DNA of 64,000 nt from positions 128,001-192,000 of the forward strand of contig CAWDPO010000003.1 in the NCBI GenBank assembly GCA_963804165.1, in the 5' to 3' direction. Of the stretch, positions 51,706-53,116 are shown one piece after another. The notes under the pieces were generated by a model. That model was not told where the DNA came from. It made no database searches and saw nothing but the letters and a program-made list of their open reading frames with translations. The stretch is from an uncultured delta proteobacterium (GTDB lineage Bacteria; Desulfobacterota; Binatia; UBA9968). Made by a program: the position numbers and the translations under genes. Each line of letters starts with the position of its first letter. The first letter of the stretch is position 1.

Positions 51706-52050
51706 ATGAACACATTCTGCATCATCCTTTTGTTTTTGCTCTCTGTGTTCGTTTGATCGATACAGGCGCAGATTGAAGGCAGAGTCACTTATCCGACTAC
51801 CGTCGGTTCGACAAGAATTTCGCCGTAAGTAAGAGTGATCCGCAAATACTCGCGCATCGCGGACCAAGAAGCCCTCGAAGAAATTTACCAGCACTACGCC
51901 GTCAAGATCATGCCTAGAGTTCCCTATCCGAAGGGAATTCAAATGGTGCTCGCCGAAGGCCAAGAGCCTCGCCCTGGTAAGTTTATCGACAGCAGCTATG
52001 TGAAAGAGCTGGAGCAGGCGGGATTTATCAAGAAGCTTTACGGCGAGTAG
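51706..52050 (+). pseudogene. Remnant of an NMT1-type substrate-binding protein gene
   Basis: Signal-peptide-like MNTFCIILLFLLSVFV* at 51706, then only the family C-terminus (...FIDSSYVKELEQAGFIKKLYGE), which resembles the end of 49386-50444. Confidence 0.6.
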
Positions 52051-52201
52051 CCGGTCACATTTTCGCGCGATGGATCTTCGACGATCGATTTTATCCCGCT
52101 CGTCGATGACGATACTCTTCCGGCAATTTTGAATATTCGGTTAGAAAAGTTTTTTTCAGCGAGCGGCAACAAGCGGGATACAAAATTTTCACGGATTTTT
52201 A

Positions 52202-52230
52202 TTGACAGTTTGAAACCACTTTCGTAAACT
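52202..52230 (+). promoter_or_regulatory. Strong sigma70-type promoter with AT-rich upstream element
   Basis: TTGACA (52202-07), 17 bp spacer, TAAACT (52225-30); AT-rich AAAATTTT...ATTTTTA upstream; GCGTTC immediately downstream. Confidence 0.75.
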
Positions 52231-52236
52231 GCGTTC

Positions 52237-52387
52237 AGCAGGGAAAGGAGGTGGTCCAGACATGATTGATAAATGTACTGTCTGCGAGGTGGCTGAGACC
52301 TAGGCTCTAGGCGGAATCTTTGACGGGGATTCGGGCCTGGAGCCTGGGAATCCCCCTCAGTCCACCTAGGGGTCCGCTTCGGCGGGA
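52237..52387 (+). ncRNA. Candidate small structured transcript carrying an extended 16S-complementary SD and a micro-ORF
   Basis: Own promoter; AAAGGAGGTGGTCCAG (52244-59); long hairpin 52305-52371; CCGC-UUCG-GCGG hairpin 52374-85. Transcript ends are inferred. Confidence 0.55.
52262..52303 (+). CDS. 13-aa micro-ORF MIDKCTVCEVAET
   Basis: ATG follows AAAGGAGGTGGTCCAGAC; TAG at 52301-03; too short for the ORF track. Confidence 0.55.
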   Translation: MIDKCTVCEVAET

Positions 52388-53116
52388 TTAGTTTTCCGCT
52401 GGAGCGGACCTTCTTTTCTTCAACAACTCGAGAGCCGCGGCGGCGGTTTTTCTGGATTGATCGTCGTTACTTTCGCTGGCGGCGTGCAGAGCGATTAAAA
52501 ACTCGTCCGACGGCGATCCTATATTCGCCAGCACGATCGCCGCAACATTGCGCACCCGCAGATCCGAGTCTTCCACGTAAGCTTTCAATAAGAGTGTCTT
52601 CCCGGTTTCTTTGACATCCGGTCTCGGCTTCAGACAGATCACGGCAGCCACTCTGACGGTTGGATCGGCATCGCTCAGAGCGTTGACCAACGCGGTCAAA
52701 CTCGCGGCGTCGTTTAAAATCAGGTCGCGAATACAGTACAAAGCCATCCTTTTTTGATTGGCCGTTCCGCATGCACTGAGATCGATCAGGCGGCTGACGA
52801 CATTGGGATCTTGCCTAGCGATGCGAATCAGCAGCAACGCCATCGCCCAGCGGATGTCCGGTTCGCGGTGATCGAGCGCGTCGAGCAAAGTTTGCACGAC
52901 AGTACCGGTTGGAAAGGGAAGTTGCCCTAGTAGATAGGCGACCGGCCAATAATTTTTGTGTCCAGATTGAGTCAGCCGTTCGTTCAGCAACGCGCGCAGA
53001 TTGGGAGATCGCTCGGCTAGTGGAATGAGCGCATCGACGGCGGCGCGAATCGTCGGCTTGTCGTGATGATCCAAGTCGGCGATCAGCGCGGCGATCTCGT
53101 TATCGTCCATAGTCAT
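52388..53116 (-). CDS. HEAT-repeat protein
   Basis: Repeated LD/SD..P.IR/VR.AA units. Confidence 0.8.
   Translation of the reverse strand: MTMDDNEIAALIADLDHHDKPTIRAAVDALIPLAERSPNLRALLNERLTQSGHKNYWPVAYLLGQLPFPTGTVVQTLLDALDHREPDIRWAMALLLIRIARQDPNVVSRLIDLSACGTANQKRMALYCIRDLILNDAASLTALVNALSDADPTVRVAAVICLKPRPDVKETGKTLLLKAYVEDSDLRVRNVAAIVLANIGSPSDEFLIALHAASESNDDQSRKTAAAALELLKKRRSAPAEN

Follow-up and report, generated by a model that had tools for sequence, protein, structure and literature searches.

An extended Shine-Dalgarno micro-mRNA from an uncultured Binatia bacterium that, by its sequence, belongs to the Ms_IGR-5 family and probably engages ribosomes

A 64,000-nt stretch of DNA from an uncultured delta proteobacterium (assembly GCA_963804165.1, contig CAWDPO010000003.1, positions 128,001–192,000; hereafter the window, with coordinates counted from its first letter) encodes a small stand-alone RNA, predicted to occupy positions 52237–52422 of the plus strand, in which a Shine-Dalgarno (SD) sequence complementary to the whole single-stranded 3′ tail of 16S rRNA precedes an open reading frame (ORF) of 13 codons. 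Judged by its sequence, the element is a member, from a new lineage, of the catalogued RNA family Ms_IGR-5. It is conserved among relatives, its reading frame and the position of its stop codon are kept, and its helices covary. We suggest, with a probability of roughly 0.7, that it is a structure-gated, ribosome-engaging micro-mRNA that works like the rreB and rreR small mRNAs of alpha-proteobacteria.

Results

Ms_IGR-5 (Rfam RF02471) is an actinobacterial small RNA (sRNA) first reported in Mycobacterium smegmatis. The accessible portions of later papers describe its validation by RNA-seq in S. lividans (PMC8079986), a matching sRNA transcription unit in S. avermitilis (PMC8780764) and ribosome footprints on it in M. 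abscessus and M. smegmatis (PMC4974804). Neither a function nor an ORF architecture for Ms_IGR-5 was found in the open texts searched, the original 2013 RNA paper lying outside that search.

Searching the whole window against Rfam at gathering cut-offs gave no match. The alignment of the element to RF02471 is nevertheless full-length and colinear (model positions 1–184 against 52237–52417), and one relative from the same genus scores 46.2 bits, above the cut-off. A covariance model built from 58 Actinomycetota copies only (R2) has the element as its sole match in the 7.5-Mb genome, at 38.7 bits over model positions 1–125, its full length, with an E-value (8e-5) that is rough owing to a short calibration. 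The architecture of Ms_IGR-5, in which SD1 precedes an ORF of 12–14 codons whose stop lies 9 nt past GAGGUG, with a helix, P2, leading to an N5-CACC strand, is found in the element as well. The two have in common a GGAAGGAGGUGGUCC 5′ end, a micro-ORF in which GAGGUG is followed by three codons and the stop (the Rfam consensus itself encodes LIDLWTCEVAAR-stop), a GAAUYCC...CAGUCACC 3′ strand, a terminator and a single-copy, stand-alone gene. Unlike Ms_IGR-5, the element comes from another phylum, starts with ATG, encodes a CxxC-type peptide, matches the 16S tail over a greater length (16 nt, through CCAG) and carries lineage-specific alternative hairpins, P3 and P4.

A search with RF02471 of 41 genomes from the window's genus and order found one copy each in 35, including the window's own, with one above the cut-off (34 of 40 if G005, flagged as unpublished, is set aside). 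Scanning species genomes with the pattern AAGGAGGTGRTC-N4-9-TGANTGA-N8-24-GAGGTG returned at least 119 stretches. Among the matches listed, 106 belong by their labels to Actinomycetota (Mycobacterium, Rhodococcus, Streptomyces, Propionibacteriales, Solirubrobacterales, Thermoleophilia and Acidimicrobiia), 8 to Acidobacteriota (Bryobacterales and Terriglobia) and 5 to metagenome-assembled genomes labelled Syntrophobacter, Syntrophobacterales, Candidatus Binatia or 'delta proteobacterium'; the elements of these five records closely resemble those of the window's order, and four are of the window's own type. With model R1, a copy was found in 73 of 151 genomes taken from the phylum (Actinomycetota) to which a Mycolicibacterium carrier belongs, a single one in 72 of them (67 of 145 carry a copy when the unpublished-flagged G196, G213, G243, G277, G283 and G315 are left out), and in none of 150 other genomes sampled evenly across the window's phylum under stricter filters, with 22 candidates scored per genome. 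R1 missed a Bryobacterales copy known from the pattern scan (four of five genomes matched); it undercounts divergent branches, so 0 of 150 means not found rather than absent. The patchy spread suggests either old horizontal transfer or massive loss. A distant-mode blastn search of a plasmid collection with positions 52237–52370 gave no match, and no occurrence of the peptide strings was found in the open literature.

The extended SD sequence, SD1 (AAAGGAGGTGGTCCAG, 52244–52259), comprises the SD core and an extension beyond it. A preliminary description of this DNA had proposed that the site pairs over 16 nt, with one G:U, with the 16S tail. The single assembled 16S gene of the organism ends in ...GGCTGGATCACCTCCTTTCT, and the pairing is therefore real; it could extend to 18 pairs if the mature tail retains ...UUUCU. 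In the whole genome, only three sites have an unbroken run of at least 15 Watson-Crick or G:U pairs containing the core, namely the antisense of the 16S gene itself, the element, and a G:U-rich site within a coding region. The complementarity stops at 52259, leaving 2 nt before the ATG that begins at 52262. The extension is kept in relatives: GGTG[AG]TC is present in 20 of 20 divergent Actinomycetota matches that were not chosen by pattern, and among 139 pattern-selected copies the wobble G of GGUG-G-UCC occurs in 129 and the distance from GGAGG to the start codon is 10–12 nt in 137. The SD extension is thereby retained in more than one phylum.

But for one change, the 16-nt match equals the 16S 3′ end in reverse complement, as would be expected of a decayed antisense fragment of an rRNA operon or, failing that, of a chance SD-rich sequence. 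We give such an origin practically no credence: the element has no further similarity to rRNA, its helices covary, its own promoter and terminator are conserved in 35 of 41 genomes and across phyla, and this conservation refutes it.

Outside the window, on the minus strand of contig C6 at about 192.1 kb, an ordinary protein gene is preceded by AAAGGAGGTGATCC, then CGTG, and this site forms 14 perfect pairs with the 16S tail. Very long SD sequences are therefore rare in this genome but not exclusive to the micro-mRNA.

The micro-ORF (MIDKCTVCEVAET, 52262–52303) has 13 sense codons between its ATG at 52262 and a TAG stop at 52301–52303. Within it, GAGGTGG (SD2, 52286–52292), an SD-like sequence 8 nt before the stop, encodes Glu-Val and is masked by helices P0 and P2 in the predicted fold; ORF and motif lie where they had first been described, and G+C-rich hairpins come after them. 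To place these features in the family, a set of 140 copies was used, made up of the 139 pattern-selected copies among the matches listed and the window's element. The gap from TGANTGA to GAGGTG is 13, 16, 19 or 22 nt (in 65, 17, 57 and 1 copies, respectively), always 1 modulo 3, so that GAG-GTG stays in frame with the start codon in every one of the 140. The first in-frame stop lies exactly 9 nt past GAGGTG in 139, the exception running off the end of its locus. In the 139 pattern-selected copies the ORF has 12–15 sense codons, and across 139 copies the start codon is TTG in 66, ATG in 64, GTG in 8 and CTG in 1. Further supporting a kept frame, 17 of 20 low-scoring R1 matches from Actinomycetota, which were not chosen by pattern, have GAGGTG followed at 9 nt by a stop, in frame with the start codon despite unrelated N-termini (LHKP..., LSEP..., MSSD...); one has GAGGGG at the same distance, and two have a spacing of 8 nt, with the frame off by one.

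A kept frame and stop would also be expected if the element were an ordinary small-protein gene, in which a strong SD merely drives high expression of a functional 13-residue CxxC peptide, for example a metal-binding or regulatory micro-protein. Within the window's order the peptide is indeed well conserved (M-[ISN]-D..C..CEV[AT]ET), with third-position changes in the Asp, Cys and Thr codons. Family-wide, however, the conserved residues are those encoded by RNA motifs, namely M-x-D/E (TGANTGA), G-T or W-T (the P1 strand) and E-V (GAGGUG); the cysteines of CxxC are restricted to the window's order, the N-termini of divergent members are unrelated, and the three C-terminal codons covary with the non-coding 3′ strand of P2. 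No modifying enzyme adjoins the gene, and in rreB, according to the accessible part of its description, a GGAGG-to-start distance of 10–12 nt and a long SD depress translation, and the RreB and RreR peptides are unstructured (PMC5711450). We consider a small-protein gene unlikely. Because frame and stop are kept while the last three codons covary with the 3′ strand, translation rather than the peptide would be what is selected; these sequence comparisons point to ribosome binding and reading of the frame as the selected feature, with the chemistry of the peptide apparently not under selection, in line with the earlier suggestion that the peptide may be secondary. Two further candidates were rejected: a precursor of a ribosomally synthesized and post-translationally modified peptide, given that no modifying enzymes adjoin the gene, and a type I toxin, given that the peptide is not hydrophobic.

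The same counts bear on the idea that the RNA is a non-translated base-pairing sRNA, its SD-like and CCACC motifs serving as seeds or structure and its ORF being incidental. Rfam classes both Ms_IGR-5 and CC2171, a family compared below, as sRNAs, the RNA is strongly structured with covariation, and other mRNAs could be bound at their SD sequences by its C-rich CCACC strand. Yet the frame survives four different ORF lengths, a stop of one type or another stands at the fixed site, and SD1 is in every case followed by a start codon. Ribosome footprints have been seen on homologues (PMC4974804) and the decay of rreB depends on its start codon (PMC5711450), as far as the accessible parts of these papers go. 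This makes an untranslated sRNA, in our judgement, a shade less probable even than a small-protein gene.

Two features of the coding region stand apart from these arguments. In most copies the start region reads xTGAnTGA (52263–52269 in the window), so that each of the two other frames meets a TGA stop at the start codon; divergent Actinomycetota members lack this motif. The stop codons of 139 copies are TAG in 116, TGA in 20 and TAA in 3, a preponderance of TAG seen although most carriers are labelled Actinomycetota. Actinomycetota have G+C-rich genomes with TGA as the usual stop, and TAG is read by RF1 only; RF1-only reading, or the location of the stop inside a helix, could be the cause of the bias.

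The helices were assessed, for P0, P1 and P2, in alignment A1 (MAFFT, 67 distinct copies), which was not fitted to any structure. P2 joins the GGUG of the internal GAGGUG and the next 5–6 nt, the last codons, to a downstream strand ending in CACC. In the window its 5′ strand (GGUGGCUGAG, 52288–52297) overlaps part of SD2 and extends into the last three codons, and its 3′ strand (CUCAG-U-CCACCU, 52356–52367) bears the anti-SD-like CCACC and has SD2 and the final codons of the ORF as its pairing partners; one U is bulged, and the helix is present in the minimum-free-energy fold. In A1, 84.7% of P2 cells are paired, compared with 72.7% in shuffles, and the covariation score is 0.309, compared with 0.109, a value that 0 of 500 shuffles reach. 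Both sides change in six pairs, and slid controls give 30–47% pairing and covariation of at most 0.059. The three C-terminal codons track the 3′ strand through combinations such as GGCUGAG/CUCAG-CC, GGCUGCG/CGCAGUC, GGCUCG/CGAGCC, GUCCGG/CCGGAC and GACUGCG/CGCGGUC. With the strand anchored on GAAUCC...CACC (112 of 132 sequences), cognate duplexes reach −15.44 kcal/mol and non-cognate ones −10.89 kcal/mol, with a median rank of 0.111 and 18 of 70 below 0.05. As a negative control, SD1 was set against the CACC strand, and its extension pairs poorly beyond the invariant GGUG/CACC (3–53 of 67 cells per pair).

In P0, found with RNAalifold in 21 relatives, the leader GCAG (52238–52241) pairs with CUGC (52282–52285) just 5′ of the internal GAGGUG, that is, 4 nt upstream of the purine run pair with 4 nt running into GAGGUG. 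P0 covaries (one pair is CG in 31 and AU in 25, another AU in 31 and CG in 26), and its register is shifted by one base within the window's order. P0 and P1 together are 79.4% paired, with a covariation of 0.269 against 0.121 in shuffles, and P1 (GUCC/GGAC) is 90% paired and nearly invariant. The predicted arrangement of P0, P1 and P2 therefore leaves the SD1 core unpaired between P0 and P1, sets the start codon in the loop of P1 and buries GAGGUG in a P0–P2 stack.

Between the strands of P2, the central hairpin P3 (52299–52348) pairs CCUAGGCUCUAGGC (52299–52312), which contains the stop codon, with GCCUGGAGCCUGGG (52335–52348). In 13 same-genus rows 178 of 182 cells are paired, with compensatory changes, and RNAalifold predicts the hairpin too. 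An alternative hairpin, P4 (52325–52355), incompatible with full P3, pairs GGGGAUUC (52325–52332) with GAAUCCCC (52348–52355); it is paired in 99 of 104 cells of 13 rows, including G-C to A-U double changes, and in a sister genus the corresponding position reads CGGAAUUGA/UCAAUUCCG. P3 and P4 are mutually exclusive because they overlap in the order a-b-a′-b′ without a linker. The junction motif GGAAUCC (52347–52353), between P3 and the 3′ strand of P2, occupies invariant or nearly invariant columns of A1 and of alignment A3 and is also part of the Rfam Ms_IGR-5 consensus. The full RNA, 52237–52422, folds at −101 kcal/mol (z = −8.1). A nested hairpin had been proposed for this half of the molecule; its inner stem, GGGGATTC/GAATCCCC, is hairpin P4 and stands, given the pairing and compensatory changes just described, whereas its outer stem, CTCTAGGCGGA/TCCACCTAGGG, is paired in 102 of 143 cells and gives way to two other helices that explain the region better.

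Some Actinomycetota members (L156, L169 and L163–L168) have, about 40–60 nt past the ORF stop, a hairpin that resembles the 16S 3′ tail, with GGATCACCTCC or TGGATCACC in its loop or 3′ arm. In these members such a hairpin would mimic the anti-SD from within the RNA and could base-pair with their own extended SD. An internal 16S-tail copy 3′ of the ORF was rejected as a general feature of the family, as it is not enriched over shuffles family-wide.

A sigma-70-type promoter, TTGACA-17-TAAACT (52202–52230; −35 element 52202–52207, −10 element 52225–52230, spacer 17 nt), can be read in the sequence below AT-rich DNA, as the preliminary description had stated; it is the sole promoter-like site in 51800–52800, where shuffles average 0.4. 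Relatives have TTGACA and a TAnnnT −10 element at the same spacing from the element, and transcription is predicted to start near 52237. At the other end, an intrinsic terminator (52369–52422) consists of a long hairpin of 19 pairs (52369–52412), followed by CUUUUCUUC; the hairpin precedes CTTTTCTT, relatives have an equivalent long hairpin and T-run, and the terminator is retained in every lineage examined. The CCGC-TTCG-GCGG hairpin, previously taken as a separate structure, is present as a part of this terminator. Because it belongs to the longer conserved hairpin ending at 52412, which is followed by the T-run, a transcript of about 180 nt is more likely than the approximately 150 nt first proposed.

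The terminator overlaps the 3′ end of a HEAT-repeat protein gene (52388–53116, minus strand) that converges on the element; the hairpin covers the last codons and the stop (52388–52390) of that gene and probably serves both transcripts as a shared two-way terminator. As had been noted, no plus-strand gene follows the element at this locus. Upstream on the plus strand lies a 71-codon ORF that ends at 52050 and has no Pfam match, and ahead of it a gene of the ornithine cyclodeaminase family; an M24 peptidase is also among the flanking genes. Clustering of flanking ORFs and a Pfam scan gave other neighbours in other clades, including Cu-oxidase_4, gyrA, an aminotransferase IV and a THAP4-like protein. 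Each clade has different neighbours, and the element therefore has no operon partner. Within its own genome it is present once, other repeats being chance matches of 15–22 nt.

This context decides against a leader or attenuator that regulates a neighbouring gene in cis, or a remnant of such an element. A short ORF followed by the alternative hairpins P3 and P4 and a terminator does resemble a ribosome-dependent attenuator. There is, however, no plus-strand gene downstream for it to act on, the neighbours vary by clade, and the terminator is there in all lineages examined; for lack of a downstream gene the attenuator was rejected, and we regard it as very improbable.

Two contigs from soil RNA libraries weakly hint that relatives of the element are expressed in soil. 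One, of 264 nt, covers 52242–52439 with 16 differences; the other, of 164 nt, covers 52255–52414 and lies wholly within the element. At 90–95% identity they therefore come from relatives. A third contig is 100% identical over 52235–52380, from a library, X1, that is only guessed to be an RNA library. Run X6 contributed no aligned contig.

Discussion

The closest functional parallel is rreB, a 165-nt stand-alone mRNA of Bradyrhizobiaceae in which a 17-nt complement of the 16S tail precedes a 14-codon ORF (Hahn et al., 2016, PMC5711450). The accessible part of that paper places rreB in the ribosome pellet, where it co-sediments with 30S subunits. There, the long SD and a GTG start codon hold translation weak, and changing the start codon to a stop raises the half-life from 10 to 37 min. 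Overproduction in B. japonicum left growth unchanged, which the authors take as an argument against simple titration. The peptides RreB and RreR have no similarity to each other, and analogues (rreR and others) are given only for Caulobacterales, Rhizobiales, Rhodobacterales and Rhodospirillales. The same part of the paper makes no mention of Rfam, CC2171, Actinobacteria or an internal GAGGUG with constant spacing to the stop. As far as found, it has been cited only in three papers on the trpL leader peptide and RNA of Sinorhizobium meliloti.

Compared by published description, not by sequence, the element resembles rreB and rreR in several respects. All are stand-alone transcripts of about 165–180 nt with an RpoD-type promoter and a terminator, in a context that is not conserved between orders, and in all of them 16–17 nt complementary to the whole single-stranded 16S tail precede an ORF of 13–18 codons; the rre type is marked by a stretch of 16 nt or more that complements the 3′ end of its host's own 16S rRNA upstream of a short ORF, and the element has such a stretch. 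For rreB and rreR the prediction is that the SD is free in its 5′ part only, the remainder lying in a conserved hairpin, and in the element's family the corresponding helix would be P1, with its 90% pairing and scant variation. Binding to 30S subunits, weak translation and start-codon-dependent decay would be carried over to the element from rreB only. So qualified, the earlier proposal that a dedicated micro-mRNA uses an over-long SD to engage ribosomes fits the conservation, the single-copy stand-alone gene and, by analogy, the 30S co-sedimentation of rreB. The roles once offered for it, in hibernation, 16S 3′-end protection or titration, have found no support, and the absence of a growth effect in B. 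japonicum argues against titration.

CC2171 (RF01867), an sRNA of Caulobacter and Methylorubrum, forms a third point of comparison. Its consensus starts GAAAGGAGGUGAUCCAGUG, a complement of the 16S tail that runs into GUG, and a helix links its ORF region to the segment just before the terminator, as in the element. The Ms_IGR-5 and CC2171 consensus sequences both open with GAAAGGAGGUG[GA]UCC. CC2171 differs from the element in lacking both the layout of GAGGUG, 9 nt and stop and any ORF sequence in common. Northern bands have been described in Methylorubrum and the function given as unknown, in the part of the report available (bioRxiv 10.1101/2022.01.24.477521). We infer that CC2171 is the Caulobacter rre gene. 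In the open literature, no source was found that joins Ms_IGR-5, rreB/rreR and CC2171 or that reports a fixed GAGGUG-stop spacing; subscription journals and supplements may hold more.

From these features an order of events may be proposed. The purine-rich 5′ part of SD1 would be displayed between P0 and P1, where a free 30S subunit could dock; a duplex of 13–18 bp with the whole single-stranded 16S tail would then zip up, melt P1 and free the start codon. Because this duplex reaches to 2 nt before the AUG, placement of the start codon would be strained and initiation slow, and the RNA would stay on the 30S subunit, in agreement with the 'parking' seen for rreB, if the analogy holds. In reading the 12–14 codons, the ribosome would open P0, P2 and P3, which mask GAGGUG, P2 holding the CCACC strand. 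With the stop codon in the A site, the P-site codon would have GAGGUG 6 nt upstream of it, a distance like that at initiation, and the anti-SD could pair again. At termination the 3′ half could refold from P3 to P4, exposing GGAAUCC...CCACC. Candidate outputs are self-limited decay, sensing of free 30S subunits, and release of a regulatory strand.

A number of points weigh against this interpretation. The element itself scores 33.8 bits (E = 3e-6) with the Ms_IGR-5 model, below the gathering cut-off of 45 bits, and 21.3 bits with CC2171, for which the cut-off is 75 bits; a match to a described Rfam family, which the preliminary description had held would speak against its proposal, was thus obtained with Ms_IGR-5, below the threshold. 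The pattern forced SD1, TGANTGA and GAGGTG in most of the copies counted, and related sequences are not independent. Unanchored, the test of cognate against non-cognate P2 duplexes is weak (−18.99 against −17.25 kcal/mol, median rank 0.238, 6 of 43 below 0.05). In rreB and rreR the complementary stretch takes in the GTG start codon's first nucleotide, whereas the element has a gap of 2 nt before its ATG. The RNA evidence consists of short contigs of relatives that show neither transcript ends nor levels, and the contig from X1 extends 106 nt upstream of the predicted start with non-matching sequence. The experiments on 30S binding, weak translation and decay were made with alpha-proteobacterial rreB. 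Finally, rreB was overproduced without a growth phenotype, and ribosome binding as such is therefore without a demonstrated consequence.

A more ambitious view, which we hold to be rather improbable, though less so than any of the rival explanations above, is that the family is a multi-phylum, translation-gated ribosome gauge. The hyper-extended SD would sample free 30S subunits whose 16S tail is intact and mature, commit them to a run of fixed length, 12–14 codons, and thereby unmask GGAAUCC...CCACC; the run would end with the anti-SD re-paired to GAGGUG, and the targets of the CCACC strand would be ribosomes or the SD sites in other mRNAs. If this were true, the RNA would be a substrate for 30S quality control, a 'test-drive', or a regulator that reports the level of free ribosomes.

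Taken at the strength of the comparisons, Ms_IGR-5, rreB/rreR and CC2171, each known under a name of its own, are linked by the analysis. About half of the Actinomycetota genomes in an even sample have an RNA that is present once per genome and pairs with the entire single-stranded 16S tail, with look-alikes in alpha-proteobacteria, Acidobacteriota and the delta-type lineage of the window. Its reading frame, the exact distance from the internal hexamer to the stop and the helices that mask the hexamer are apparently all under selection. Should this RNA prove to report on 30S subunit state or to control it, it would represent a layer of translational control that is widespread and has been overlooked.

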